From an uncultured Alphaproteobacteria bacterium (GTDB lineage Bacteria; Pseudomonadota; Alphaproteobacteria; CAAHEQ01; UBA3637): a stretch of 64,000 bases of DNA. Below are positions 1,530-39,855 of this stretch, one piece after another. Position numbers and translations under genes: made by a program. Location: NCBI GenBank assembly GCA_947586835.1, contig CANPXT010000001.1:44543-108542 (forward strand), written 5' to 3'. Below the pieces are notes generated by a model, which did no database searches, was not told where the DNA came from, and was given only the letters and a program-made list of their open reading frames with translations. The stretch's first letter is position 1. Each line of letters starts with the position of its first letter.

Positions 1530-4142
1530 TTATAAAACGGGTTTACCGTAATAAGCTTCCAAGAACAAGTCTTTAATTTCGCTGATTAACGGATACCGTG
1601 CATTGCATCCCGTGCATTGATCGTCAAACGCTTTCACGGATAAGGCATCAAGCGAAGCCAAGAAAGCCTTTTCATCAACATTCACTTCTTGAATGGACAT
1701 TGGAATATTTACAGCTTTTTTCAAATCTTGAATGGCTTGAATTAAACGCGCGACTTTTTCATCAACCTGCGAATCGGTTAAACCAGTTGTTAAGCCCATG
1801 GCATCGGCAAATTCGGCATATCTCTCTTTAACAAACGGATACCGATATTGCGGAAATGTTCCTTGTTTTGTCGGCGCATCCGTTGCATTATATTTTACCA
1901 CATAGGGCAGTAACAATGCATTTGCCAACCCGTGCGCCACATGAAATTCACCACCGAGTTTGTGCGCCATTGAATGACACAAACCCAAAAAGGCATTTGC
2001 AAACGCTTGCCCGGCCAATGTTGCGGCATAGTGCATTTTTTCCCGCGCTTCGGGGTCTTTGGCACCGTGTTCGTAAGAACGAGGCAAATACTTAAAGACA
2101 AGACGTGCTGCTTCCAACGCCTGCCCGTCGGACAAGTTGTTTGCCATCACGGATGTATAAGCTTCCAACGCGTGTGTTAATACGTCAACGCCCGAAAATG
2201 CCGTTAATCCTTTCGGCATACTCATAGCCAAATCGGGATCAACAATGGCCATATTCGGCAAAATAGCATAGTCGGTAATGGGATATTTTTGGTTGGTTTT
2301 ATCATCGGTAATCACAGTAAACGGTGTGACTTCCGATCCCGTTCCGGATGTGGTCGGAATGGCAACCATTAACGCTTTTGTACCTAATCGCGGAAATTCC
2401 ACAATCCGTTTTCTAATATCCAAAAAGCGCATGGCAATATCTTCAAACGCCAATTCGGGATGTTCATACATAAGCCACACGATTTTAGCGGCATCCATCG
2501 GTGAACCACCGCCGACGGCAATAAACACATCGGGTTCAAACCGTTTGACTTGTTCCAAAATTAAACCGATGGTTGATAAATCAGGATCGGGCTTGACGCT
2601 GTCAAAAACCTGATAACTCATACCGTTCTTTTCCAAAATACCGCCGATACGACCCGTAATACCGATTTGCGTCATCGTTCTATCGGTTACGATAAATGCT
2701 TTTTTACGTCCTTGTAATTCAGCCAACGCAAAATCAAGGCTGCCCCGTTTAAAATAAATTTTTTCAGGTGTTTTAAACCAGAGCATGTTTTCACGGCGTT
2801 CCGCCACGGATTTGATATTCATCAGATGTTTCACTCCTATATTTTCACTGACGGAATTACCGCCCCAAGAACCGCACCCCAATGTTAACGACGGCGGCAG
2901 TCTGAAATTGTATAAATCACCGATAGCACCCTGCGATGAAGGCATATTAATTAATGTTCTGCCGGTAGTCAATGTCTCGCGGAACAATTTAATTCGATCT
3001 TGATTCGACTCGGCCGTATATAAGACCGACGTATGCCCGGCACCGCCGATGACAATAAGCTTTTGAGCATCTTGCACAGCCTCTTCAAATGTTTTGGCTT
3101 TAAAAAAGCCTAAAATCGGCGACAACTTTTCATGTGCAAACGGATTGGCTTCATCAATTTCTTTGGATTCCACCAATAACACTTTGGTTGTAAACGGAAC
3201 TTTAATACCGGCCATTTCCGCGATTTTGGCTGCCGGTTGTCCGACAATGGCAGAATTGAGTTTTCCGTCCTTAAAAATTAATCCTTTTAATTTTTTCTTT
3301 TCCGATTCATTCAAAAAGACGCATCCGCGTTTAATGAATTCGGCTTTAATGTCATCATAAACGGATTCTAACGCCACAACCGCCTGCTCGGAAGCACAAA
3401 TCATGCCGTTATCAAACGTTTTACTCATAATCACGCTGCTGACAGCCATTTGCAAATCGGCCGTTTCGTCAATCACAACCGGCGTATTTCCGGCACCGAC
3501 ACCGATAGCCGGTGTACCGGACGAATAAGCCGCCTTTACCATTCCCGGTCCGCCGGTTGCCAAAATTAAAGAAATATCTTTATGCCCCATTAAATAACCT
3601 GTAACGGCCGGTGTTATTTCTTCCAATCCGGCAATAATATCTTTCGGAGCACCGGCTTTAACGGCTGCATCCAAAACAATTTTAGCCGCTGCATTCGTAC
3701 AATTAATCGCACGAGGATGTGGGGCAAAAATAATACCGTTTCTGGTTTTTAAAGCAAGCAATGATTTAAAAATAGCGGTTGATGTGGGGTTTGTTGTCGG
3801 AACAATACCGGCAATCAAGCCGACCGGTTCTGCAATTTGCGTATAACCGTGTTCCACATCTTGGCAAACAACACCGCACGTTTTTGTATTTTTATATGCA
3901 TTATAAATATATTCCGCCGCAAAATGATTTTTAATAACTTTATCTTCCGTAACGCCCATACCGGTTTCCTGAACCGCTGCCTGCGCCAAAGGAATACGTT
4001 GAGACGCTGCCGCCAATGCTGCAGCTTTAAAAATAACGTCAACCTGCTCTTGGGAATAAGTCGCATAAACGGCTTGTGCTTTTTTGACTCGTTCGACAAG
4101 CAAATCAACTTTCTTTTTTTGTTCTTCTGTTAAATCAGCCAT
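1530..4142 (-). CDS. adhE: bifunctional acetaldehyde-CoA/alcohol dehydrogenase AdhE
   Basis: 870 aa. N-terminal ALDH domain and C-terminal Fe-ADH domain with a GGGSPMD-like motif. Typical AdhE length and start (MADLTEEQ...). Confidence 0.9.
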   Translation of the reverse strand: MADLTEEQKKKVDLLVERVKKAQAVYATYSQEQVDVIFKAAALAAASQRIPLAQAAVQETGMGVTEDKVIKNHFAAEYIYNAYKNTKTCGVVCQDVEHGYTQIAEPVGLIAGIVPTTNPTSTAIFKSLLALKTRNGIIFAPHPRAINCTNAAAKIVLDAAVKAGAPKDIIAGLEEITPAVTGYLMGHKDISLILATGGPGMVKAAYSSGTPAIGVGAGNTPVVIDETADLQMAVSSVIMSKTFDNGMICASEQAVVALESVYDDIKAEFIKRGCVFLNESEKKKLKGLIFKDGKLNSAIVGQPAAKIAEMAGIKVPFTTKVLLVESKEIDEANPFAHEKLSPILGFFKAKTFEEAVQDAQKLIVIGGAGHTSVLYTAESNQDRIKLFRETLTTGRTLINMPSSQGAIGDLYNFRLPPSLTLGCGSWGGNSVSENIGVKHLMNIKSVAERRENMLWFKTPEKIYFKRGSLDFALAELQGRKKAFIVTDRTMTQIGITGRIGGILEKNGMSYQVFDSVKPDPDLSTIGLILEQVKRFEPDVFIAVGGGSPMDAAKIVWLMYEHPELAFEDIAMRFLDIRKRIVEFPRLGTKALMVAIPTTSGTGSEVTPFTVITDDKTNQKYPITDYAILPNMAIVDPDLAMSMPKGLTAFSGVDVLTHALEAYTSVMANNLSDGQALEAARLVFKYLPRSYEHGAKDPEAREKMHYAATLAGQAFANAFLGLCHSMAHKLGGEFHVAHGLANALLLPYVVKYNATDAPTKQGTFPQYRYPFVKERYAEFADAMGLTTGLTDSQVDEKVARLIQAIQDLKKAVNIPMSIQEVNVDEKAFLASLDALSVKAFDDQCTGCNARYPLISEIKDLFLEAYYGKPVL

Positions 4143-4287
4143 AGAATTCTCCTCACAAAAATAAACATTTTTCGCGTTTAGTATATTTGTTTTTGAAAAA
4201 TAAGCAAGTTATTTTAACAAAATTTTGAAAATTCTTTTTGTGCTGCGTTAACAAATATTTTATCCGATACAAAAAAATTCAGATAAG

Positions 4288-4896
4288 TTATTGTTTTGTA
4301 ACAATAACCATTGCTTCTCTCAACACACGGTCACCTCCGATGGTATAACCGCTTTGCAATTCTTGCACAATGGTACCCGGCTCTTTTTCATTATTTTCCA
4401 CTTCTTGAATTACTTTATGTAAATTAGGATCAAAAATTGTGCCGAGAGCTTCCATTTTTCGAATCTGATGTTGTTCAAAAACGGTTTGAAGCTGTTTTTG
4501 CGTCATTTCCACACCTTTAAGCAGATTAATTAAAAACGAATCACAATCGGTGTGTGCTTCCTTTGCTTTTTCAATTTCTTTTTGAGCATAGTCTATGGCG
4601 TTGGATAAATAATCGGCAACCGGCAACAAATCACGCGCAAAAGAGGCATTGGCATAGCGATTGGCTTTTTCAATATCGAGTTGAGTCCGTTTGCGCAAAT
4701 TTTCCATTTCCGCCTGCGCCCGCATGGCTAAATCTTTCCATTTTTCCAACTCTTCGTTTTGAGATGATGAATCGGCTGTTTCTTTCGGTGTTATTTCAGC
4801 CGAATCCGTTGCGTTTTTTTCCGTTTCTTTTTCCTGTGTTGTCTCAATGGATTCCGGTGATGCGTTTTGTTGTTTATGATGATGTTTATGACTCAT
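4288..4896 (-). CDS. grpE: nucleotide exchange factor GrpE (His-rich N-terminus)
   Basis: GrpE coiled-coil and C-terminal beta domain (…GTIVQELQSGY…). Start moved to the ATG at 4896 (MSHKHHHK), which has an AAGGA RBS. The ORF-track extension to 4947 is AT-rich with no RBS. Confidence 0.85.
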   Translation of the reverse strand: MSHKHHHKQQNASPESIETTQEKETEKNATDSAEITPKETADSSSQNEELEKWKDLAMRAQAEMENLRKRTQLDIEKANRYANASFARDLLPVADYLSNAIDYAQKEIEKAKEAHTDCDSFLINLLKGVEMTQKQLQTVFEQHQIRKMEALGTIFDPNLHKVIQEVENNEKEPGTIVQELQSGYTIGGDRVLREAMVIVTKQ

Positions 4897-5012
4897 AATA
4901 ATCCTTTCCGAATAAAATAATATGAATATGCTTATATGTAGAAGCAAGTCATATAAAAATCAAGAGAAAAATTAAAAAAAATTTAATTTCAAGACAGAAT
5001 TATGAAAAAAAC

Positions 5013-19305: not shown

Positions 19306-21750
19306 ATGAACAGTATACCGATGGATCTAAACGTTTTTGGCATGTTGGCGCAGGGTGCTTCCTCGTTTTCAACGTGGATGGCCGTTATCGGCATTATCGG
19401 CACAATGATGATTATGTCCGTGTTCGTAACCAAGCTCGGCGATATTATTCTACCGAAACCAAAAGAAACACGCGTATCTGACTTTTTACCGTTCAGCAAG
19501 TTAGATGAAGACGGCGCAACCATTCATTTACGCAACGGTTCTTTGGCACGCGTGTATGAAGTTAAAGGCGTTGATACCACCTTATTAACCGGATCCGAGC
19601 GTGTTGCTTTAACGGGTGCCCGCAAACAATGGATTGATTCCATGGCGCAGTTGGAAATTGTTTCACGGGTAATTACCATTCGGGAAAAAGTTTCTTTATC
19701 CGATTTGGGGCAACATAAAGACAGTAAATTATTGCGTACGATTTCCGATAAATGGATGGAAAGTTTGCATCGGGTATTTCGAAATAAACATTATATTGTT
19801 ATCTCCGTTAATGATCGCAAAAACGCTATGGAAGATTTGCAACAAGCCTCTCTGGCCTTAACTTCTATTTTGGATATGTATGAACCGCGGCTTATTTCCG
19901 AAAAGCCGCCGTTTAAAACAAATGATCAAAGTCCGTTTTGGCTGTTTGCCCAATTGGCAAGCCCTTTATCGGTTCCAAAACCGCGCGTCGGCGGTGAACA
20001 AGGAGAATACTTAAATGCACTTTTAACGGCAGATTATATTCATTTTACCCGAGACGAAGGAATTATTAAATTTATTTCTGGTGATATGGAAAAACTCGGC
20101 ATTTGTATCGGCATTCGTAAGCCCGGTGACTTTATGGACGAACAAATGATTGCCGATATTTTAAGTATTGATTGCGAAGTTACGCTTTTACATAATATTA
20201 AAGCCATTCCGATGATTAAAGCCAATATGTTGTTGATGCAACAACGACGTATGGCCTTTTTAACCACTTTTTCAACAAACGTGATGGCTCAATATTCAAC
20301 GGCTTTGGAATGGTTGGATCAATCCGATGCCGACGGGCAAACGTTAAACGAATATGCCATGACGGTGTTTATTTTCGGAGAAACGAAAGATGAAGTAAAA
20401 TTCGGGCAGGAAGAAGTTGAAAAAATATGCCGTATTTACAACGTAACACCCGTTCGAGACGGTTGGGCGGCACAAGCTTCATTCTTTGCGCAATTTCCGA
20501 CATATGAAATTTACCCGCGCACGTTCTTGTACTTATCTCGCGTGGTAGCATGCAGTATTTGTATTGATAAAACAGCTGAAGGTCGACGGAAATCCGACTG
20601 GGGTCCGATGCCGCTTTCTTATTTCCGCACCATTACCGGTACGGCTTATGCTTTCCAATTCCATGTTTCGGAAGAAGCTTATGCCGTGGCACATACGGCT
20701 TTAATCGGTCCGACGGGACAAGGTAAAACAACATTCTTCTCCTTTATGGCCGGACAATCAATGCGCATTCCCGATTTGCATACCTATTTCTTTGATCGCA
20801 ACAACGGTGCCAAAGTGTTTGCTTTAATGCTGAATGCACCGTATGTTCGGTTTGACGGCGGTGAAGAATCGGTATCATTAAATCCGTTTGCCGTGCCTGA
20901 CACACCTGATAATCGCGCCTTTTTGCGCACATGGATGCGAGATATTACGGGGGGAACAGACGCCGTTTCCGAACAGGAAATTGCACGTGCCGTTACAACG
21001 GCGTTTGAATATTTGCGTCCCGATGAGCGATTAATGAAAAATCTTTATAAAAGCTGTTTTGCGCCGAACGGGTTTATGCGTCGGGAATTATTCCGCTGGG
21101 TAAATGATGATCAATACGGACGTATTTTTAACTCTTTAACCGATAATTTGGATTTATCCAGTCGTTACATGGCTTTTGATTTCACAACCATTTTCCAAGA
21201 CGGCGTGTTGGCACCTGCCGTTATCAGCTATGTGATGCATCGTATTCATACATTGGCAACGGCTACCGGTGCGCCGAGTTTAATTATGATTGATGAAACC
21301 GCACCGATGCTGGAACATCCTATGTTTAAAGACAGTTTTATTGTCGGTTTACGGGAAGGTCGTAAAAAACGGCAAGCATTTTTGTGCGCCTTCCAGCAAC
21401 CGCGCTTTTTGGATGATAACGGGTTAGGCGATGTGATTCGCGGTCAATGTCAAACGGTTATTTTCTTCCGCAACCCGCAGGCCAATCCATCAGATTATGC
21501 CACATGGAACTTAACACCGCGCGAAATGAATTTTATTATGGGTAAAGAGTTTGCCGATAGAAAATATGCGATTTTGGTTTCCCGTCCCGCTATTCACGAA
21601 TCGGTTATTTTAGATGTTGATTTAAGCGGATTAGGCCCGTATTTAAAAGTTTATTCTTCCGGTAATAAAAATGTGTTATTGGCTGAACAGCTGTCAAAAC
21701 AATTACAAGATACCGACGCGTTGGTTCAAGCTTATTTGGATAAGGCATAA
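19306..21750 (+). CDS. virB4: type IV secretion system ATPase VirB4
   Basis: 814 aa CagE/TrbE/VirB4 family with Walker A GPTGQGKT. Confidence 0.85.
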   Translation: MNSIPMDLNVFGMLAQGASSFSTWMAVIGIIGTMMIMSVFVTKLGDIILPKPKETRVSDFLPFSKLDEDGATIHLRNGSLARVYEVKGVDTTLLTGSERVALTGARKQWIDSMAQLEIVSRVITIREKVSLSDLGQHKDSKLLRTISDKWMESLHRVFRNKHYIVISVNDRKNAMEDLQQASLALTSILDMYEPRLISEKPPFKTNDQSPFWLFAQLASPLSVPKPRVGGEQGEYLNALLTADYIHFTRDEGIIKFISGDMEKLGICIGIRKPGDFMDEQMIADILSIDCEVTLLHNIKAIPMIKANMLLMQQRRMAFLTTFSTNVMAQYSTALEWLDQSDADGQTLNEYAMTVFIFGETKDEVKFGQEEVEKICRIYNVTPVRDGWAAQASFFAQFPTYEIYPRTFLYLSRVVACSICIDKTAEGRRKSDWGPMPLSYFRTITGTAYAFQFHVSEEAYAVAHTALIGPTGQGKTTFFSFMAGQSMRIPDLHTYFFDRNNGAKVFALMLNAPYVRFDGGEESVSLNPFAVPDTPDNRAFLRTWMRDITGGTDAVSEQEIARAVTTAFEYLRPDERLMKNLYKSCFAPNGFMRRELFRWVNDDQYGRIFNSLTDNLDLSSRYMAFDFTTIFQDGVLAPAVISYVMHRIHTLATATGAPSLIMIDETAPMLEHPMFKDSFIVGLREGRKKRQAFLCAFQQPRFLDDNGLGDVIRGQCQTVIFFRNPQANPSDYATWNLTPREMNFIMGKEFADRKYAILVSRPAIHESVILDVDLSGLGPYLKVYSSGNKNVLLAEQLSKQLQDTDALVQAYLDKA

Positions 21751-26652: not shown

Positions 26653-27603
26653 CTAAAAGTGCCAAGCCAAATTAAGTTTTCCCGTTTGAGACGTATGACT
26701 GACGCGCCAATTTAATCCGTATCCGACGGAAAGCTCGGCTTGTTTATAAGTTACACCGAACCGTACACCCGTTTCTAAACCCAATCGATGTAACCGCCGT
26801 CCTTCAAAAGCATAAATAAATGCGGAATCGGGAACGTCAATTACGGTTTGTCGGCTGTTTGATTTTAAATCATATTGTCCCGATAACCAAAATAACGGTG
26901 TTAACGAAAGATTTTCGGTCGGTTGATACAAACGTTTATAGGAAGTTCCGATTATGGCGGTAATCACTTCTCCGTTTTGAAGCGGCGCACCGAAGGCAAC
27001 GTTATTTTTATCTTTTCCGTGCAAATATGTATATTTTAAACCCGAATAATTATGAACATTACCCATTTCATACCCGGAAAAAAGAGCTCCGCGATAAATA
27101 TCGGCATCGGACTGATTAATATCAGGATTTTTGTCTTTATATTGGCTGTGATTATAGGTCAAATCAGCCGAAACATACCATTTTTCAGGTTGATATTTAC
27201 CGAAAATAAAATAAGTATCGCCGTCAATGCGATTTTTAGCGCCGTCTTTTTTTAAATCGGTTGTTGAATAGCCGTATCCGATTCCGGCAGAAAATGAATC
27301 ACTCATTTGCGCCGTTATATCGGCACCCGTTCCTTTTAAATAAGATTTAAAGCCTTCACGCTGCGTGTTTCGAGTCATATTATAATCACCGAAAACATGC
27401 AAATGAATGTTTTTTGAAAACGAATCGTTTTTTAAAGAAGTGTTTTTAGTTTTTAATTGAAAAATATGAATATTTTCAGCTCCATGAGCCAATGTCGAAA
27501 ACAAAGAAACTTCAAAAAACAAACCGATTGACAAAGAAGCCGTCAGAAAAAGAGGTAATGATAAATATTTACATTTTTCATTGATTTTTATCATAATTTT
27601 CAC
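26653..27603 (-). CDS. outer-membrane beta-barrel protein (porin/autotransporter-beta like)
   Basis: Signal peptide, alternating amphipathic beta-strands, and a C-terminal aromatic residue (…LNLAWHF). Confidence 0.5.
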   Translation of the reverse strand: MKIMIKINEKCKYLSLPLFLTASLSIGLFFEVSLFSTLAHGAENIHIFQLKTKNTSLKNDSFSKNIHLHVFGDYNMTRNTQREGFKSYLKGTGADITAQMSDSFSAGIGYGYSTTDLKKDGAKNRIDGDTYFIFGKYQPEKWYVSADLTYNHSQYKDKNPDINQSDADIYRGALFSGYEMGNVHNYSGLKYTYLHGKDKNNVAFGAPLQNGEVITAIIGTSYKRLYQPTENLSLTPLFWLSGQYDLKSNSRQTVIDVPDSAFIYAFEGRRLHRLGLETGVRFGVTYKQAELSVGYGLNWRVSHTSQTGKLNLAWHF

Positions 27604-27855: not shown

Positions 27856-28200
27856 ATGAATGATGAATTACGTGTTATTATCTCGGCAAATATTAAAAAA
27901 TACCGTAAAAAAATGAAAATAACACAGTCTCAACTTGCGGAACAAATCGGTAAAACAGTTGAAATGGTTTGTCAATTGGAAAATAATATTGCCAGTACAA
28001 AATTATCCACCTTGGAAACCATTGCTCATGTTTTCGGTATTGAACCGTATCAATTATTATTACCGCATGAATATCCTGATTTTGAAACTCTGCCTCCGGA
28101 ATTAACGGATTTAATGTTAGAAATTCAAGAGCAACCCAAAGAGTTTTTAGAAGCTTTAACACAGCTGCTGAAATATTGCAACAATAATCACAACATATAA
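27856..28200 (+). CDS. XRE-family HTH transcriptional regulator
   Basis: HTH_XRE motif (ITQSQLAEQIGKTVEMVCQLENN…). Sits at the head of the ABC-2 cluster. Confidence 0.75.
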   Translation: MNDELRVIISANIKKYRKKMKITQSQLAEQIGKTVEMVCQLENNIASTKLSTLETIAHVFGIEPYQLLLPHEYPDFETLPPELTDLMLEIQEQPKEFLEALTQLLKYCNNNHNI

Positions 28201-28267
28201 TATTAATTGACAAGGCATACATTTTAAATTATACTCGCTCATATTAATATAAAACGGGAGATTAAAG

Positions 28268-29161
28268 TTGCCTGAAACAGTTATCATTGCCGATCATTTA
28301 ACTAAAATTTTTAAATATAAAAAAGGGGTTTTAGGAAAAATTATCGAAAATACTGCAGTGTCCGCGCTTTCATTTGAAGTTAAAGCGGGTGAAATCATTG
28401 CTTTTATCGGTCCGAACGGGGGCGGAAAATCAACAACCATTAAAATGTTAACATCTATTTTGTATCCCTCGTCGGGTCATGCCTCCGTTTTAGGTCTGAC
28501 ACCTTGGAAAAATCGAGAAAAGTTGGTGCGACAAATCGGCGTGGTCTTCGGGCAAAAATCACAGTTGTATTATCATCTTTCGCCAACAGACAGTTATACG
28601 TTATCGGCAGCTGCTTATAATCTTTCATCTCGTGAAGCCAAGGCACGTGTTCATGAACTGGCAAAGCAGTTTGAAATTGAAGATTGTTTGAATTTACCGG
28701 TTAAAAATTTATCATTGGGGCAACGCATGCGTTGTGAATTGATTGCATCACTGTTACATCGACCGTCCGTGTTGTTTTTAGACGAACCGACATTAGGTCT
28801 GGATATTGAAGCAAAATATTTATTTCGTTCTTTTTTGTTAAAACAGGCTCAAAAAGAAGGGACAACCGTTTTTTTAACTTCTCATGACGTGGGAGATATT
28901 GAATCGCTGTGTCACCGCATTTTGCTGATCAATCACGGAAAATTATTACTGGATTCCGATATTCAAAATCTAAAAGAAAAATACGGCGCCGGTCAGGTTT
29001 TGTGTGTGGAACGTCCCTCCGGAAAAATTGAAGAAATATCACTGCAAACCACAACGAAATTATCCCAATTAAAAAAGTTTTTTTCGTCTCAACCGTTTTC
29101 TAATGTTTTTGTGCGTTCAACAGATTTAGAAACCATTATTGCTTCTATTTACAGAAAATGA
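28268..29161 (+). CDS. ABC transporter ATP-binding protein (ABC-2 exporter type, C-terminal DUF4162-like extension)
   Basis: TTG start with GGGAG RBS. Walker A GPNGGGKST, signature LSLGQRMR, Walker B LFLDEPT. Confidence 0.9.
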   Translation: MPETVIIADHLTKIFKYKKGVLGKIIENTAVSALSFEVKAGEIIAFIGPNGGGKSTTIKMLTSILYPSSGHASVLGLTPWKNREKLVRQIGVVFGQKSQLYYHLSPTDSYTLSAAAYNLSSREAKARVHELAKQFEIEDCLNLPVKNLSLGQRMRCELIASLLHRPSVLFLDEPTLGLDIEAKYLFRSFLLKQAQKEGTTVFLTSHDVGDIESLCHRILLINHGKLLLDSDIQNLKEKYGAGQVLCVERPSGKIEEISLQTTTKLSQLKKFFSSQPFSNVFVRSTDLETIIASIYRK

Positions 29162-29949
29162 AACCATATCTCCTTGCCGTTTTAATGAATATGAGAGACC
29201 AGCTTCAGCGATCGCGCGAATGGGGCATATTTTTAATTCGAATTATTTTTTTATGCTTTATGATTTTAATTTTTCATAAATTTTGGCTTGTGTTGAAAGC
29301 GGGCGAAACACACATGGTAATTGATCCCGTTTCTTTTTTAAGCTATTTAACCGTCGGTGCCGGTTTGCAATTTTCGCGGCCGGAAGGCAGAGTCAAAGAA
29401 ATTGAAGAAGAAGTGCGAACGGGAAACATTGCTTATCGGTTTATTCGACCGATACATTTTGTTTTATTGAATTTTTGCGAATGTTTAGGTGTTTATTTTG
29501 CTCGATTACCAATCTTGTTTTGTGTCGGCACGGGAATGATTTATCTTTTAACCGGTTCATTTCCGCCGATTAATCCGCTTTATTTGCCGATTGTTCTCGG
29601 ATTGCTTATATTAAGCGCTTGTTTTGCTTCGCTTTGCATGGTGTTTATCGGATTATCGGCTTTATATTTTTATGATCCGTTACCGTTTTTCTGGATTGTA
29701 CAAAAATGTGAATACGTTTTGGGCGGGTTGTTTTTTCCGATTATTTTTTATCCCGAATGGTTTCAAAAAATTTGTTTAATGACGCCTTTCGGATGGACAG
29801 GATACGGTGTTTCTTCTCTGATTTATGATTTTTCTTTTGATAATGCTTTAACGGTATTTCTTCATTTAATTGCTTGGAATGCCCTTTTGTTGGGCGCGTT
29901 ACTTGCTTTATATAAAACGGTTCAAAAAAAGGTGTGTGTTTATGGATAA
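29158..29949 (+). CDS. ABC-2 family transporter permease
   Basis: 263 aa, 6 TM. Start overlaps the ATPase stop. Confidence 0.75.
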   Translation: MKPYLLAVLMNMRDQLQRSREWGIFLIRIIFLCFMILIFHKFWLVLKAGETHMVIDPVSFLSYLTVGAGLQFSRPEGRVKEIEEEVRTGNIAYRFIRPIHFVLLNFCECLGVYFARLPILFCVGTGMIYLLTGSFPPINPLYLPIVLGLLILSACFASLCMVFIGLSALYFYDPLPFFWIVQKCEYVLGGLFFPIIFYPEWFQKICLMTPFGWTGYGVSSLIYDFSFDNALTVFLHLIAWNALLLGALLALYKTVQKKVCVYG

Positions 29950-30727
29950 ATTGATTTACTATCAACAGCTTATAAAAACCGGTTATAAACAAGCGTTTGC
30001 TTTGAAAAAAGTGTTTATCCTGCGTGTGTTGTTTATGATTTTAAATAATCTCATGTTATTATATGCTTGGCATTTAATGTTTTTAAATTTTTCGACCATT
30101 CATTCATGGACATTCAACGATTTTATGTTTATGACGGGACTGGTTGTTCTTACGTTTTCGATTTGGCCTATTTTCTTTCGCGGTATCGGCATTCATTTAA
30201 TGCGTTTAATTGAAAACGGCGAGTTGGATTCTTTTTTGGTGATTCCGCGACATGTTTTGTTCAGCGTGGGATGTTCTGTTTGTGATCCGTCCGGAATCGG
30301 CGATTTTATTACGGGCATCTTGTTGATTTTCTTTTCCGGTTTGGTTTCACTCTCAAACTTACCGATGGTATTTTGTTTTATCTTTTCGGGAATTTGCGTC
30401 TTTTTGACCATTAACATTTTGATCAGTACCTTACCGTTTTTCATTAAAAATTCTTCGGATATAGGCGAACGCCTTTTTTATATGTTTTTCAATATTGCCG
30501 GCTATCCCGGAAGTATTTACAGCGGATATTTAAAACTGATTTTCTGTACCCTTTTACCTGTCGGATTCATTTCCATTCTGCCGGTTGAATTGATGCATAA
30601 TTTTTCAGGTACGGTATTCATGTTTTTAATTGTGGCAAGTATTTGCTTCTTAAGTTTAAGTATTTTTATTTTTTCGTACGGATTAAAAAAATATGAAAGC
30701 GGCAACAGGTTTAATATTCACCATTAA
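29942..30727 (+). CDS. ABC-2 family transporter permease (second subunit)
   Basis: Start moved to the ATG at 29942 (MDKLIYY), which overlaps the upstream stop. 6 TM. LnrLMN-like ATPase+2 permease layout. Confidence 0.75.
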   Translation: MDKLIYYQQLIKTGYKQAFALKKVFILRVLFMILNNLMLLYAWHLMFLNFSTIHSWTFNDFMFMTGLVVLTFSIWPIFFRGIGIHLMRLIENGELDSFLVIPRHVLFSVGCSVCDPSGIGDFITGILLIFFSGLVSLSNLPMVFCFIFSGICVFLTINILISTLPFFIKNSSDIGERLFYMFFNIAGYPGSIYSGYLKLIFCTLLPVGFISILPVELMHNFSGTVFMFLIVASICFLSLSIFIFSYGLKKYESGNRFNIHH

Positions 30728-32054
30728 AAAAGCATTGATTGTAATCAGTATTTTTTTGTTGGCTGTTTTTTCCGATAATTTAAATGAAAAACCACATGCC
30801 TGCATTTGGTTAAAACCCGGCAATTTATTTGAAACCCGCTTTGTATTGTCTTTTATGCAAAAATTAACGGATGAAAATATTTATCCGATTTATTCACCGT
30901 TTTGTGACAAAAACGGTGCTTTTATCATTGCAAATGAAATGCTTCAAACGCCTTTAGTACAAACAATGCCTGTCTTTTTGGTGGATTTCGGTCGATTAAA
31001 ATTTTTCCCGACAAATAACAATCCCCAATATACACATCTTTTTTATTTTAACAAAAAAAATGCTCCTGTATTGCCTGACTTTCTGCAACCATCCCTTTCC
31101 GTTACTTATGTTTCTCCCGATTCTCCCGAAACGGCGGCAAATGAAATTTCCTCATTTATTTTAAAGGATAAATGGTTAAATTTTTACATTTTGGAAAGTA
31201 TGTCAGGTTCCGGATTAGGTAATCAACTGTTTCTTTATGCTGCCGGATTAAGCTACGCCAACCGCTTCCACAAAAAATTTCTGTGGCGTAATCCGGAAAT
31301 TATAACAACTTTTGAGTTGGGTTCACAAGAATTTATCTTATATTATACTCCTTTTACAATGGCGTTGAAAAAAAGATTATCAAACTTATCTAACCGAGCA
31401 AGCTATTCACACAATTATAACCAAAGTTTATATCAACGTTCCGATATTGTTTTAATCGACGGATATCATCAGGCTTATAAAAACATTGAAAACAATGTGG
31501 CTTATCTTCAAAAAAAGCTCAAATTTAAACCGTTGACAGAAAAAGAAAATATAATGTTAGCCCAAAAACTGCAATCACAAAACAGTGTTTGTCTGCATGT
31601 GCGATTGGGCGATTATGTTTCAAACGGGTATCCTAATTTAGTTCGTTCAAACTATTACCAAAATTCAGTCGATTACATTTTAAAACGAATACCTGATCCC
31701 ACGTTTTATGTTTTTTCAAATAATCCGGAAGAAGCCGAAAAGCAATTAAAGTTATCCGTTTCGTTTGAAGTTGTTCGCGTTAATCAACAGAAGGCAGATT
31801 TTAGAGATATGCAGTTGATGAGCTTATGCAAACATAATATAATTGCTAATTCCTCTTTTTCATGGTGGGCTGCACTGTTGAATAAAAATCCCGATAAAAT
31901 TGTCATGTATCCGGATATATGGGATTGGGCAGATGAAAATTGGATAAATTATATGCGCGTGCCGGGGTGGATTGAAATTGACAGCGGTATTATGTATAAT
32001 AAGCAGTTACAAAAATTTATTTATCCGTCATATAAAAAGGAAAAATCTGAATGA
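30693..32054 (+). CDS. GT11-family alpha-1,2-fucosyltransferase-like protein with N-terminal TM anchor plus ~160-aa extension
   Basis: GT11 motifs GLGNQLFLYAAG, HVRLGDY and SSFSWWAALLN in the C-terminal 280 aa. N-terminal hydrophobic helix (ALIVISIFLLAVF). Overlaps the permease end by 35 nt. Confidence 0.75.
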   Translation: MKAATGLIFTIKKALIVISIFLLAVFSDNLNEKPHACIWLKPGNLFETRFVLSFMQKLTDENIYPIYSPFCDKNGAFIIANEMLQTPLVQTMPVFLVDFGRLKFFPTNNNPQYTHLFYFNKKNAPVLPDFLQPSLSVTYVSPDSPETAANEISSFILKDKWLNFYILESMSGSGLGNQLFLYAAGLSYANRFHKKFLWRNPEIITTFELGSQEFILYYTPFTMALKKRLSNLSNRASYSHNYNQSLYQRSDIVLIDGYHQAYKNIENNVAYLQKKLKFKPLTEKENIMLAQKLQSQNSVCLHVRLGDYVSNGYPNLVRSNYYQNSVDYILKRIPDPTFYVFSNNPEEAEKQLKLSVSFEVVRVNQQKADFRDMQLMSLCKHNIIANSSFSWWAALLNKNPDKIVMYPDIWDWADENWINYMRVPGWIEIDSGIMYNKQLQKFIYPSYKKEKSE

Positions 32055-32626
32055 AATATAATAATAAAAAGAAAAAAGAAGAACCGTTTCGTCCGTGTGA
32101 TTATCCCGGCTGTCCGGAAAACGGGCAGTTTCGGGCACCAAAAGACAGAAATTTAAACACTTATTATTGGTTTTGTTTAAAGCATGTGACCGAATATAAT
32201 AAAAATTGGGATTTTTATCAAGGGTTATCCGGTGATGAAATTGAACAGCATATTCAAAATGATATGACTTGGCAACGTCCGACATGGAAACTCGGGCACA
32301 ATCAAACTTTTCGACGTATGACAAATAATTTGCACGATTCATTCGGCTTTTTTAATGAAGAAGAACTCGGCATGAGCGGAAAATATAATCCGCCGCGCAC
32401 TCAAGATACAACAGATAAAAAATTAATTGCCGCCGTTAAATTTTTGGAACTTTCATTTCCGCTTGATTCGACGGAGATGAAAAAACAATTTAAAAAATTG
32501 GCAAAAAAATATCATCCCGATACCAACGGCGGTGATAATAAAAATGAAGCATTGTTTAAAGAGTTACTTGATCATTATCGATATTTAACGGCTTATTTAT
32601 CTTTACATAACAAGGTTAACAAGTAA
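32051..32626 (+). CDS. J-domain (DnaJ-like) protein with N-terminal Cys-rich motif
   Basis: C-terminal J domain (KKYHPDTNGGD…). N-terminal CDYPGC…YYWFCLKHVTEYNKNW motif, a family conserved in alphaproteobacteria. ATGA overlap with the upstream stop. Confidence 0.7.
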   Translation: MKYNNKKKKEEPFRPCDYPGCPENGQFRAPKDRNLNTYYWFCLKHVTEYNKNWDFYQGLSGDEIEQHIQNDMTWQRPTWKLGHNQTFRRMTNNLHDSFGFFNEEELGMSGKYNPPRTQDTTDKKLIAAVKFLELSFPLDSTEMKKQFKKLAKKYHPDTNGGDNKNEALFKELLDHYRYLTAYLSLHNKVNK

Positions 32627-34437: not shown

Positions 34438-34797
34438 TTATTCAGACGGATTGCTCATCGTTGTTTCAAACCGCACAACAGCCGGTTTTGATTCTTTTAA
34501 AACAGTAATGACAAGAGAATCTTTTTCTCGGACGAATCGATTATCTTTTTCAACACGCCATCCGAGTGCCGATAAGGCTTGCCGATAATAGGCAGTAATT
34601 TTTCGACCGGTTAATGATTGTCCCGTGGCATTCACGGTTCGAATTTGTCCCGCAGGAGTATCAAAATCAATATTAGCCGTCGGATTCACACTTAACCCCT
34701 CCATTAAAGGTACATCTTCCGTACCGGGCAAAAAAGCATCGTCCGCACACGCGAGAGAAGATAGGAATAAAAAGCTTAAAAAGAGTGCTTTTTTCAT
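34438..34797 (-). CDS. secreted/lipoprotein hypothetical
   Basis: Signal peptide ending in LAC; 119 aa; no known domain. Confidence 0.45.
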   Translation of the reverse strand: MKKALFLSFLFLSSLACADDAFLPGTEDVPLMEGLSVNPTANIDFDTPAGQIRTVNATGQSLTGRKITAYYRQALSALGWRVEKDNRFVREKDSLVITVLKESKPAVVRFETTMSNPSE

Positions 34798-35600
34798 TTT
34801 TTCATTCGATCACTTTCGTTAAAAATATTGTCAACCGCCGGTTTGGAATTAGCTTTTTCCTGATTACCGCCAATTCTTGACTTATCTTGTGTTTTATTAT
34901 CCGATTGTTCCTTTTTTCGGGTTTGTTCCGACTTTTTCGTTTGATCCGTCTGTTCCCCGGCTTTTTCCGCATTCACATTTTGCTCGCCGGGTTGAATCAA
35001 TTCGGGCGGCTCAAAATGCACACCTAATATTTCATCAATTTCTTTATTGATATTTTCCAATATCTCTTTTTTCTCTTTCAATAACTCTTCTTGAGCAGCC
35101 AGATTTCCATTTTTTGTTTGATTCATTTCCGGCAACATCGGTTCAATCGTTTGAGTTGCCAACTTAATTTCATCGGCAGACAGCACCTGCTCTAACGTTA
35201 AAGCTAATTGTTCGGCTTCTTTACTGCCGTTCAATGATGCCAAAAAAGCCCAGCGATAAGCGACAATATCATTTTGCGGTAAGATTAAGCCTTTATTATA
35301 AAGCTGGGCAACACGATATTGTGCTTTAACATGTCCCTGAATAGCGGCAGACAAAAGACAATAACCGGCATTGTTCCGTGTTTCTCCTTTTTCCAGCAAA
35401 AACAATTCGCCTTGATCATATAACTCATCGGGTGACGGCATAAACACACCGCCGTGCGCTTCATCGAATTGACCGTCACACTGAGCGGGAATCATTGTTT
35501 CATTATTATTATCGTCATAACTCCAAAAGACATTTTGTGCCTGAGCCGATGCAATCGGCAATATAGAGAGTGCCATTACTGTTAAAATTATCCGACGCAT
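34794..35600 (-). CDS. secreted Sel1-repeat protein with K/E/Q-rich disordered tail
   Basis: Signal peptide and Sel1-like repeats (…AQYRVAQLYNKG…AYRWAFLA…). Confidence 0.55.
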   Translation of the reverse strand: MRRIILTVMALSILPIASAQAQNVFWSYDDNNNETMIPAQCDGQFDEAHGGVFMPSPDELYDQGELFLLEKGETRNNAGYCLLSAAIQGHVKAQYRVAQLYNKGLILPQNDIVAYRWAFLASLNGSKEAEQLALTLEQVLSADEIKLATQTIEPMLPEMNQTKNGNLAAQEELLKEKKEILENINKEIDEILGVHFEPPELIQPGEQNVNAEKAGEQTDQTKKSEQTRKKEQSDNKTQDKSRIGGNQEKANSKPAVDNIFNESDRMKK

Positions 35601-37777: not shown

Positions 37778-38731
37778 ATGCAATATTTGGATTTTGAACA
37801 AACAATTGCCGAAATTGATAATCGTATTGAAGAAATTAAACTCAAACTGATTAATGACGAAAAAGGCGCTTCGGAACTGGACAGATTACACGCAAAAAAA
37901 GAAAAAGCTTTAACGGGATTATATAAAAACTTAACGGCTTGGCAAAAATCAGCCGTGGCACGTCATGAAAATCGCCCGCATACCACTGATTATTTAAATG
38001 AAATTTTCACAAATTTTTGTCCGTTAAGCGGCGATCGTAATTTTGCCGACGATCAAGCCATTATCGGCGGGTTTGCCAAACTCGGCAATCGAACGGTTAT
38101 GGTAATCGGCCACGAAAAAGGACACGATACCGAAAGTCGTTTATTACATAACTTCGGTATGGCAAAACCGGAAGGATATCGTAAAGCCATTCGGTTAATG
38201 AAATTGGCTGAACAATTTAATGTACCCGTTATCACGTTGGTTGATACCGCCGGCGCTTTTCCGGGTATGGAAGGAGAAGAACGCGGACAAGGGCAAGCTA
38301 TTGCCGCCGGCACGGAAACGTGTTTAGATTTAAAGGTTCCGCTTATCTCTTGCATTATCGGTGAAGGCGGTTCGGGCGGTGCTATCGCATTGGCTGCCGG
38401 TAACATTGTTTTAATGCTTGAAAACTCAATTTATTCCGTTATCTCTCCCGAAGGGTGTGCTTCTATTTTGTGGAAAGATGCCAAAATGGCGCCCAAAGCG
38501 GCTGAAATTTTGCATTTAACGGCGCAAGATTTACTCAAACTCGGCATTATTGATTCCATTATTACCGAACCGATCGGCGGAGCGCAACGGCATCCCAAAG
38601 AAACCATGGAAAATGTGCGGTTTGCTTTGGAAAAATATTTGACTCAATTGGAAAAATTATCGCCTGATGAATTAAAAACACATCGACATGAGAAATTTTT
38701 AACCATGACGCGGTTAAATGAGGCGGGATAA
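37778..38731 (+). CDS. accA: acetyl-CoA carboxylase carboxyltransferase alpha subunit
   Basis: 317 aa. Classic AccA throughout (…GHEKG…, FGMAKPEGYRKA, GEGGSGGA). Confidence 0.95.
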   Translation: MQYLDFEQTIAEIDNRIEEIKLKLINDEKGASELDRLHAKKEKALTGLYKNLTAWQKSAVARHENRPHTTDYLNEIFTNFCPLSGDRNFADDQAIIGGFAKLGNRTVMVIGHEKGHDTESRLLHNFGMAKPEGYRKAIRLMKLAEQFNVPVITLVDTAGAFPGMEGEERGQGQAIAAGTETCLDLKVPLISCIIGEGGSGGAIALAAGNIVLMLENSIYSVISPEGCASILWKDAKMAPKAAEILHLTAQDLLKLGIIDSIITEPIGGAQRHPKETMENVRFALEKYLTQLEKLSPDELKTHRHEKFLTMTRLNEAG

Positions 38732-38790
38732 TGGAAAAAGTCAAAAGAAAAAAATTAAAGCGTCATAAAAAATTTTTAACGTTTTCTTGC
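38495..38790. repeat. direct repeat copy 1 (accA 3' end + start of fucosyltransferase), ~296 bp
   Basis: Near-identical to 40217-40512 with about 3 mismatches. Confidence 0.85.
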
Positions 38791-39855
38791 TTACTATTCT
38801 TCTTTGCTTGCTTTCTTTCTTCCGCAATTCTCACGATTTTTCTTCTTTTTTATATTTATCCCGCCACACCGGAACAAGCTGCTTTAATTCGGTGGGAACA
38901 GCTGGTTTTGCCGCCGACGAGTGACTATATTTCGGTGTTTGAGGAATTGAAAAACGTGATGAAAAAACACGGGATGACTTTTCGTTTAAAGAACCGCCCG
39001 AAATTGACGGATAATTTAATTTTTGTGGCGCGAGCCGATTATCATGTGCCTTCCCATATAAAAGCACCGGCTTATTTATGGAATGTTGAATCACCGATAA
39101 CCATTCGATTTCCGGCCATCAAGAAAGATGAAGAGCGATATTCTAAAATTTTTACTTATTCCAAGAGATTTACGGATAATAAAAAATATTTTTATGCACC
39201 CGTTCCGTTCCGATATGATAACGCTTTTCCGTATTGTCCTAATCCCGCGCGAAAAACAGTGCTGGTTTCGCAAATTGCCGGATTATATAAATACGGTAAA
39301 AAAAACGAGTTATATTTTTTGCGACAAAAATCAACCGAATGGTATGTACGCAATCATCCCGAAGATTATTTTTTATATGGTAAAGATTGGAAAGATTTCA
39401 AAAAAACATTATCATCGAAAGAGCAAGAAGCTTTTGATCGGGTTTATCATGGATATATTCCTCGAAAATCCGATGCCGTTATAAAAGCAAAATTTATATT
39501 GGCTTATGAAAACGGTATTTTTGACGGATACGTCAGCGAAAAAATTTTTGATGTTATGGCATACGGGGCTGTTCCCGTCTATATCGGCGCACCAGATATT
39601 AAAAATTATGTGCCGGAAAACTGTTTTATTGATAAAAACAAATTTCAAACGGAAGAAGCGCTATATAACTATTTAAAAAATATGACCGATGAGCAATATT
39701 ATGACTATTTGATTTGCGGATCGGAGTATATGTCACGTCCCGTTCATTATAACGATCCGCTGACGGTTTTTCACTTATTGGAAAAAGAGCTTTTTGCGCC
39801 GCGTGAAATTTTCCATCGGTTTTTTCAAAAAATAGAGCACTTGTTTTTTGTTTAG
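38731..39855 (+). CDS. GT10-family alpha-1,3/4-fucosyltransferase-like protein with basic N-terminus and TM anchor
   Basis: C-terminal FucT motif KFILAYENGIFDGYVSEKIFDVMAYGAVPVYIGAP matches H. pylori FutA and eukaryotic FUT. N-terminal MEKVKRKKLKRHKK then a TM helix. ATG overlaps the accA stop. Confidence 0.8.
   Translation: MEKVKRKKLKRHKKFLTFSCLLFFFACFLSSAILTIFLLFYIYPATPEQAALIRWEQLVLPPTSDYISVFEELKNVMKKHGMTFRLKNRPKLTDNLIFVARADYHVPSHIKAPAYLWNVESPITIRFPAIKKDEERYSKIFTYSKRFTDNKKYFYAPVPFRYDNAFPYCPNPARKTVLVSQIAGLYKYGKKNELYFLRQKSTEWYVRNHPEDYFLYGKDWKDFKKTLSSKEQEAFDRVYHGYIPRKSDAVIKAKFILAYENGIFDGYVSEKIFDVMAYGAVPVYIGAPDIKNYVPENCFIDKNKFQTEEALYNYLKNMTDEQYYDYLICGSEYMSRPVHYNDPLTVFHLLEKELFAPREIFHRFFQKIEHLFFV

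Follow-up and report, generated by a model that had tools for sequence, protein, structure and literature searches.

A GT11 fucosyltransferase with an orphan N-terminal domain follows a clade-specific ABC exporter in uncultured Alphaproteobacteria

Analysis of a 64,000-nucleotide stretch of contig CANPXT010000001.1 (assembly GCA_947586835.1, from an uncultured alphaproteobacterium; hereafter, the window) revealed that a glycosyltransferase (GT) gene of family GT11 is a genuine full-length gene of three parts: a leader, a lineage-restricted alpha/beta domain and a complete GT11 core. The open reading frame (ORF) runs from an ATG at 30693 to 32054 on the plus strand and encodes 453 aa. Directly upstream lies an ATP-binding cassette (ABC) exporter of one ATPase and two permeases, and in nine of nine clade-specific cassettes of this kind the next gene is a fucosyltransferase. 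We see an even chance that the enzyme sits at the periplasmic face of the inner membrane, works with the exporter and fucosylates an envelope glycan.

A three-part GT11 gene

The ORF listing of the window contains the reading frame together with all the sequence features that an earlier note, made from the letters alone, had read in it: the peptides ALIVISIFLLAVF (residues 14-26), GLGNQLFLYAAG (residues 174-185), HVRLGDY (residues 302-308) and SSFSWWAALLN (residues 387-397), a 35-nt overlap with the end (30727) of an upstream permease gene of family PF06182, and an ATGA overlap between the TGA stop and the ATG of a downstream J-domain gene (32051..32626, 191 aa, PF00226). The GT11 assignment itself was confirmed by Pfam, where PF01531 (Glyco_transf_11) scored 79.2 bits against a cutoff of 23.9, with residues 256-403 matching profile positions 123-272. 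The motifs are conserved as well: across 33 long and short GT11s, G174/G176/N177/Q178, H302/R304/D307/Y308 and D372...W392 are invariant or nearly so. We counted 24 columns invariant across long and short forms, and an alignment of the 15 long-form clusters shows dozens of invariant positions in the core. Judged by its sequence, the core is a complete GT11 of the predicted alpha-1,2-fucosyltransferase type.

A search of 5.8 billion proteins returned 5655 GT11 homologs, which are mostly 270-330 aa long and cover only residues ~173-430; most sampled short members carry GxGNQ at residue ~9. The whole length of the query is covered by a long form of 15 clusters (429-493 aa), and bacterial GT11s with an N-terminal anchor exist as a minority. 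The nearest relatives of the catalytic domain are bacterial, from metagenome-assembled genomes (MAGs) and isolates, at 33-37% identity over the core. No NCBIfam model matches the full-length protein, and a PDB sequence search with the family profile gave 0 matches and no GT11 structure. An AlphaFold2 (AF2) model built on the family alignment (pLDDT 83.8, pTM 0.80) places a GT-B core after the N-terminal domain, and Foldseek matched the full model to the GT-B fucosyltransferases AtFUT1, POFUT1, FUT8 and NodZ in the PDB (probability 1.0, E down to 1e-6). Within the long form, a subgroup among P0011-P0015 has a CxxC in a variable insert of the core (C274/C277 of P0011 and C254/C257 of both P0012 and P0015 are examples), and P0007, P0008 and P0010 have a CC pair within their last ~10 residues.

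The extra N-terminal region with a hydrophobic helix, to which the earlier note had drawn attention, is genuine, has a single hydrophobic segment and is unusual against the mostly shorter GT11 homologs. Its domain of ~130-135 aa is conserved in the 15 clusters, with homologs down to 32% identity and with C37, C71 and F117 invariant. The family model has a helix at residues 2-32, then ~2 residues to the first strand (residue 35) of a compact alpha/beta domain at residues 35-157, with six strands and two helices. Because this domain is confidently folded when modelled alone (pLDDT 82, pTM 0.79), the region between helix and core is not a flexible stem, and the likeness to a eukaryotic stem suggested in the earlier note was not borne out. 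Searched separately, the N-terminal 171 aa had no Pfam match, and the domain profile, run over 1.84 billion representative proteins, picked up the long GT11 family itself, a truncated member (P0131), spurious repeat proteins and nothing else. By these searches the N-domain is an orphan restricted to the long GT11 family. No PDB fold match reached E < 1e-3 in Foldseek; the matches were all of a generic flavodoxin/Rossmann-like kind, the best being the LdcI wing domain (TM 0.52, E 2e-3).

We offer only as a hypothesis that the N-domain descends from the N-terminal half of a GT10. An hhalign comparison of the two gave 75 columns in a consistent alpha1-beta2-beta3-beta4 register that is not significant (E 0.012, probability 3.6%); in this non-significant alignment, the invariant F117 falls on the invariant GT10 "KIFT". 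No GT10 structure was among the top 50 Foldseek matches of the N-domain. A hairpin with a 9-bp stem and a T-rich tail lies within the N-domain coding sequence (30895..30918, plus strand) and includes the C71 codon; overall, the operon has about as many terminator-like hairpins as chance predicts (4 observed, 4.5 expected).

If the N-terminal ~170 aa were untranslated, the gene would encode a soluble GT11 of ~300 aa that starts at an internal Met; alternatively, the layout could reflect import of a eukaryotic FUT1/2-type enzyme with its transmembrane (TM) segment and stem. Internal Met residues do exist at positions 55, 83 and 92, the Shine-Dalgarno sequence ahead of M1 is weak (GGA), and the layout is superficially that of a type II membrane protein. 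However, none of the internal Met residues is conserved in the long-form alignment, so M1 is the start, which settles what the earlier note had left uncertain. Differences from the 68%-identical ortholog in locus L001 at codon positions 1/2/3 number 38/22/53 over codons 35-172 and 52/37/71 over the catalytic part; because the two patterns match, the N-terminal region is translated and under purifying selection. The first 12 codons, which double as coding sequence of the second permease, are nearly invariant at the DNA level relative to L001. Leader and N-domain are present in 15 of 15 long-form clusters and conserved as protein down to 32% identity, the supposed stem is a folded domain with a confident AF2 model, and the nearest relatives of the core are bacterial. 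The N-terminal region is thus a conserved protein segment with coding-type substitutions and a confident fold rather than non-coding DNA, and on the same three lines of evidence we reject an internal start at Met55, 83 or 92. We saw nothing in the sequence comparison pointing to a eukaryotic origin, and we consider a mis-called start or a eukaryotic import very improbable.

Fucosyltransferases behind the exporter cassette

Behind the cassette, in the slot for the fourth gene, five of the nine loci carry a long GT11 (the window, L001, L085, L086 and L087), three a GT10 of 342-350 aa (L089, counted as L089/L090, L092 and L093) and one a GT10-GT11-GT6 fusion (L003). The distance between cassette and slot gene ranges from a 38-nt overlap to a 10-nt gap, and in a comparison of seven loci the cassette proteins share 43-86% identity from end to end. 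L001 and L003 come from MAGs of uncultured Alphaproteobacteria. The long GT11 orthologs behind the cassettes of L001, L085, L086 and L087 are 32-68% identical, and their flanking genes differ. Because the flanks differ between loci, it is selection and not inherited synteny that keeps cassette and fucosyltransferase together. The GT10 and GT11 families have no sequence relationship but use a common donor, GDP-fucose, so the pairing seems to be tied to fucosylation itself and not to one enzyme.

The linkage is a property of one branch of these transporters. Homologs of the second permease form 23 clusters at at least 46% identity, after which identity drops to at most 35%, and two of two distant PF06182 cassettes at that level (L094 and L095) have no glycosyltransferase; in L094 both permeases match PF06182. 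Short GT11s elsewhere, and the anchor-GT11-GT6 pair of L088, are not beside such a cassette.

The earlier note had described the GT11 gene as translationally coupled on both sides. Coupling on the exporter side stands, being conserved at 32-68% GT11 identity, whereas on the J-domain side it does not: the J-domain gene adjoins the GT11 gene only in close relatives, is separated from it by one gene in L085 and is absent in L086 and L087. The conserved partner of the GT11 is the upstream exporter, not the J-domain gene. Nor does the gene, which the earlier note had seen as inserted into or co-transcribed with an exporter operon, look like a recent insertion, since a fucosyltransferase always follows the cassette. 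Functional coupling to the J-domain gene was rejected on the absence or separation of this neighbor in distant orthologs and on a strong promoter-like site in the 3' end of the GT11 gene (31972..32000, plus strand; TTGAAA-17-TATAAT, 11/12), 50 nt before the J-domain gene. That gene may have a promoter of its own despite the ATGA overlap.

Among the cassette proteins of the window (Table 1), the ATPase is 46-86% identical to those of L001, L003, L085-L087 and L089. Its best NCBIfam match is TIGR01188 (drrA) at 210 bits, under the cutoff of 312, and in Pfam it matched only PF00005 and AAA-type models, with no detectable Wzt-like carbohydrate-binding domain. The gene of permease 1 overlaps the ATPase gene by 4 nt, and the protein is 43-85% identical across cassette loci. 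BLASTP showed no similarity between permeases 1 and 2, so recent paralogy was rejected, and no solved relatives of the permeases were found. The start of permease 2 (29942) was taken from public gene calls. The promoter candidate ahead of the ATPase gene is to be read against 30 promoter-like matches across the region where 21.6 are expected. An XRE-type helix-turn-helix (HTH) gene upstream of the cassette is a possible local regulator; a 111-aa ORF occupies its position in L001, and the gene, found in close relatives only, is absent in L085-L087. The segment 27300..28200, which holds this gene and several promoter-like sites, is very AT-rich (GC 0.24-0.25).

Table 1. Features of the locus and of related loci. 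Positions are those of the window unless a locus is named; in leader sequences a slash marks the putative cleavage point.
Feature	Position	Strand	Description
GT11 leader, residues 1-33	30693..30791	+	n-region K2, K12, K13; 13-14 aa uncharged core ALIVISIFLLAVFS; short helical spacer
GT11 leader, first 35 nt	from 30693	+	dual-coding with the end of permease 2
Orphan N-domain, residues 34-171	30792..31205	+	small alpha/beta, Rossmann/flavodoxin-like; invariant C37, C71, F117
GT11 catalytic core, residues 172-453, and stop	31206..32054	+	PF01531; motifs GLGNQ, HVRLGDY, YVFSNN, DMQLMSLCKHNIIANSSFSWW
ABC ATPase, first cassette gene	28268..29161	+	297 aa, DrrA-like; PF00005, 93.8 bits
Permease 1	29158..29949	+	263 aa, divergent ABC-2-type; weak Pfam match only (ABC2_membrane, E 0.065)
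Permease 2	29942..30727	+	261 aa from ATG 29942; PF06182 (ABC2_membrane_6), 87.8 bits
Sigma-70-like promoter candidate	28207..28235	+	TTGACA-17-TATACT; 11/12, by consensus match alone; just upstream of the ATPase gene
XRE-type HTH gene	27856..28200	+	HTH_3 on identical public contigs; upstream of the cassette
GT10, leader-bearing	38731..39855	+	374 aa; PF00852, 53.5 bits
L003 fusion	L003 6798..9458		886 aa; signal-peptide-like leader, then GT10, GT11 and GT6 in series; directly behind the cassette
L003 leader			MKRWIFCLFFVLFTSISVA/ETSSPP-MKKASF; strong AGGAGG Shine-Dalgarno before the start
L092 leader			MKKFIMMLLFFLIPCTIYA/SSDTTP-MKKATL
L093 leader			...GFSYG/NEMHSPKS-MKKATL
L089 leader			MKNLWIFLGSCFIAC/AVSAASGDSS; lipobox-like

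The L003 fusion would be a single-chain synthase of Lewis/H/ABO-type glycans. L088 holds tandem anchor-GT11-GT6 genes (1840..3072 and 3184..4914), namely P0019 (576 aa) and a 410-aa copy with a truncated GT6, and a thioredoxin/DsbA-like gene lies near this pair on the opposite strand. Arylsulfotransferases (PF05935) bearing signal peptides, and with them a conserved exported protein of unknown function (154-157 aa), are found repeatedly within a few kb of the cassette-GT10 loci (L003 9858..11944, L092 6883..9269 and L093 6848..10674). The window has no gene for an arylsulfotransferase or for the 154-157-aa protein. This neighborhood hints at wider extracytoplasmic glycan tailoring, possibly with sulfation.

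Where the enzyme would act

The window encodes a second leader-bearing fucosyltransferase, a GT10 (Table 1) whose start overlaps the stop of accA (37778..38731). Its N-terminus, MEKVKRKKLKRHKK, is extremely basic, with nine Lys/Arg before the core, and continues into a 33-aa uncharged run; a lipobox-like FFAC lies in this stretch. The GT10s in the cassette slot of L089, L092 and L093 are 35% identical to it or are similar GT10s. The window GT10 is a probable partner enzyme of the GT11, and its orthologs fill the cassette slot in other genomes.

In the mechanism that we consider most likely, a Sec-type leader would direct the GT11 through the inner membrane and retain it close to that membrane and to the exporter, whether the leader is cleaved off or stays as an anchor. 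At that site the enzyme would cap an envelope glycoconjugate, for instance lipopolysaccharide (LPS) or lipooligosaccharide (LOS), with alpha-1,2-fucose and so create an H-type epitope, while the ABC system would move a substrate, either the donor or a lipid-linked acceptor, across the membrane. Addition of alpha-1,3/4-fucose by the window GT10 would then, with the GT11, yield Lewis/H-type, host-like surface glycans. We infer the periplasmic orientation, the nature of the acceptor and the cargo of the ABC system.

Several features of the leaders, which we judged by pattern and by eye, are consistent with export. All 15 long-GT11 members have one hydrophobic segment, at the N-terminus, with uncharged cores of mostly 12-19 aa that follow 2-5 Lys/Arg; their cleavage sites are inconsistent. 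In GT10 and GT11 relatives that lack a leader, the protein starts straight with the first strand of the fold. In the slot orthologs, a leader with n-, h- and c-regions and then a polar linker stand ahead of an apparent ancestral start codon (Table 1), and these leaders resemble those of the arylsulfotransferases nearby in L003, L092 and L093. A lipobox pattern like that of PROSITE PS51257 occurs in four of the six nearest GT10s. Several slot-ortholog leaders look like signal-peptidase I (SPase I) or lipoprotein signal peptides. Cysteine content leans weakly in the same direction: two Cys are invariant in the N-domain, leader-bearing GT10 domains mostly have a single conserved pair of Cys where their leaderless relatives have 3-6 scattered ones (Mann-Whitney p ~1e-4, phylogeny ignored), and long GT11 cores average 2.3 Cys against 4.0 (p ~0.002, phylogeny ignored).

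A number of observations weigh against periplasmic fucosylation. The window GT11 itself has nearly balanced charges, with three Lys/Arg before the hydrophobic core and one or two after, and it has no canonical AXA or lipobox site but at best a marginal VFS/D; its leader may stay uncleaved and serve as a signal anchor. With 0.92-0.94% Cys, the window enzymes lie just a little below the mean of the whole window (1.2%). The 64 kb contain no GDP-fucose pathway, no ligase and no glycan cluster. The GT10 and GT11 enzymes characterized from bacteria work at the cytoplasmic face, and we know of no nucleotide-sugar pool in the bacterial periplasm. Finally, EvrABC (TCDB 3.A.1.141), reportedly the only PF06182/DUF990 system studied experimentally, is said to export a small cation.

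The main rival is a cytoplasmic-face enzyme held by an N-out or re-entrant anchor, with the ABC-2 system exporting the finished fucosylated glycolipid, which we consider possible with the balance tipped against it. Such an enzyme would use cytoplasmic GDP-fucose on an undecaprenyl-linked or lipid-A-core-linked glycan, as in Wzm/Wzt systems or in Helicobacter pylori with its Lewis antigen and Wzk flippase. This arrangement fits what is established about Leloir fucosyltransferases and ABC-dependent glycan export better than periplasmic action does, and it accounts equally well for the conserved gene linkage. The near-balanced charges around the hydrophobic core of the window GT11 suit it, as does the modelled position of the N-domain tight to the membrane, which would favor lipid-linked acceptors; monotopic enzymes such as PglC were, moreover, long mis-predicted as type II. 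Yet the SPase I-type sites, lipoboxes and polar linkers of the slot orthologs imply cleavage and a location outside, and would have to be coincidence. Basic residues precede the hydrophobic core in every member, nine of them in the window GT10. Several members, too, have a core that spans just 12-14 aa, on the short side for a stable transmembrane helix. The genes also lie outside any polysaccharide cluster, and the transporter does not have the detectable Wzt-like carbohydrate-binding domain that such a system would lead one to expect.

Linkage could, on the other hand, come without shared function, if the glycosyltransferase merely rides the exporter transcript in a compact genome and the ABC system performs, for example, drug or toxin efflux. 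Overlap with unrelated genes is indeed seen elsewhere in the window, both between the GT10 and accA and between the GT11 and the J-domain gene, PF06182 transporters have no known role with glycans, and the distant PF06182 cassettes have no glycosyltransferase at all. But all nine clade-specific cassettes keep a fucosyltransferase directly downstream despite differing flanks, and the switch of the slot between GT10 and GT11 is hard to explain without selection for the pairing. We therefore regard hitch-hiking as improbable.

Periplasmic action of the GT11 also has a bolder form, which we think rather unlikely, in which Leloir-type fucosylation takes place outside the cytoplasm because the exporter delivers GDP-fucose to Sec-exported GT10 and GT11 enzymes (and to GT6 in the one fusion). 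The exporter would then do in bacteria, driven by ATP, what nucleotide-sugar supply does in the Golgi, the GT11 would be docked to it through the orphan N-domain, and host-mimicking H/Lewis/ABO-like epitopes would be built after export of the envelope glycan. We know of no precedent for a GDP-fucose exporter that feeds periplasmic Leloir enzymes.

Surroundings of the locus and relation to known systems

Apart from this locus and the GT10, the 64-kb window is otherwise largely of housekeeping character (RNase E, AcrAB-like efflux, GatAB, enolase, a KdsA-like gene and HisRS), and it also holds a MoxR/DUF58 cluster, a VirB4-like gene and an autotransporter; Rfam found one tRNA only. The KdsA-like gene suggests that the organism makes LPS. 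Features of a host-association type near the locus include a VirB4/CagE-like ATPase, an autotransporter beta-domain protein and a Sel1-repeat protein (19306..21750, 26653..27603 and 34794..35600), and L085 has a weak OspF/SpvC-like match at 2207..3502. An AdhE-type bifunctional aldehyde/alcohol dehydrogenase (869 aa, 1530..4142, minus strand) suggests that the organism lives anaerobically by fermentation, as would fit a gut origin. The carriers of the cassette are uncultured Alphaproteobacteria known from metagenomes, and sample names suggest animal guts as their source.

A literature search on PF06182/DUF990, anchored bacterial GT11s, GT6/GT10/GT11 fusions and periplasmic fucosyltransferases found nothing that describes this module. 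The window enzyme shares its Pfam family and the motifs GxGNQ, HxRxGDY and DMxLMSxCKHxIIANS[ST]FSWW with bacterial GT11s such as H. pylori FutC and Escherichia coli WbsJ (O128) and WbgL (O126). Unlike these, it has a ~33-aa leader and a ~135-aa orphan domain before the core, it is coupled to an ABC cassette instead of lying in an O-antigen or LOS locus, and the second Arg of HxRRGDY is Leu (HVRLGDY). The eukaryotic FUT1 and FUT2, which are Golgi type II proteins, belong to the same GT family and likewise have an N-terminal hydrophobic segment resembling a signal anchor; were the GT11 periplasmic, the topology would also be equivalent, on the non-cytoplasmic side. In contrast to FUT1 and FUT2, however, the spacer in the window protein is a folded alpha/beta domain and not a flexible stem, we saw no specific sequence affinity, and something else than an SLC35-type antiporter would have to supply the donor.

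Neisseria Lst, an outer-membrane, nucleotide-sugar-dependent LOS alpha-2,3-sialyltransferase, places a host-like sugar at the end of a surface glycolipid (PMC4324315) and so offers a partial precedent for such a transferase acting outside the cytoplasm. The likeness is conceptual only, as Lst belongs to another GT family, transfers another sugar from a donor scavenged from the host, is an outer-membrane enzyme and lacks an ABC partner. An unexpected compartment for a GT11 is documented in Trypanosoma brucei, whose TbFUT1 is mitochondrial (PMC8439653), although that enzyme is eukaryotic, has an unrelated N-terminal region and is not linked to a transporter.

Turning to the exporter, Wzm/Wzt and the Lewis-antigen LPS pathway of H. 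pylori with Wzk also tie an ABC exporter to glycosyltransferases of surface glycans, which in H. pylori are fucosylated host mimics. Their transferases are leaderless and cytoplasmic, however, and Wzm belongs to PF01061 and Wzk is a PglK-type exporter. The window cassette further differs from Wzm/Wzt in its two distinct permeases (one of them PF06182), in an ATPase without a carbohydrate-binding extension and in the absence of a glycan cluster. Three-component PF06182/DUF990 systems, of which EvrABC is the reported example, share the plan of one ATPase and two different permeases of ~260 aa, and L094 and L095 show this layout bare; only in the clade-specific branch (at least 46% identity) has a fucosyltransferase joined the operon.

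A GT11 with a leader, an orphan domain and a core, wired to a clade-specific ABC exporter, is a variant new in both architecture and context, and its mechanism is potentially new too. The locus belongs to a wider pattern of blood-group-type glycosyltransferases bearing what look like export signals in uncultured Alphaproteobacteria. To our knowledge, bacterial glycobiology generally holds that nucleotide-sugar-dependent transferases act only in the cytoplasm. The locus challenges this view, in that two unrelated fucosyltransferase families, each with export-type leaders gained independently, are firmly linked to one ABC exporter. This indicates either a new route of glycosylation outside the cytoplasm, with its substrate supplied by a transporter, or an enzyme complex of a new kind that is tethered to a transporter. 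The four-gene cassette is small enough for a direct test in E. coli, and the enzymes may serve for making fucosylated oligosaccharides. The predicted products, H, Lewis and, in relatives, A/B-type structures, would be mimics of host blood groups, and would thus bear on immune evasion, on colonization of mucus and on the association of the microbiome with secretor and ABO status.

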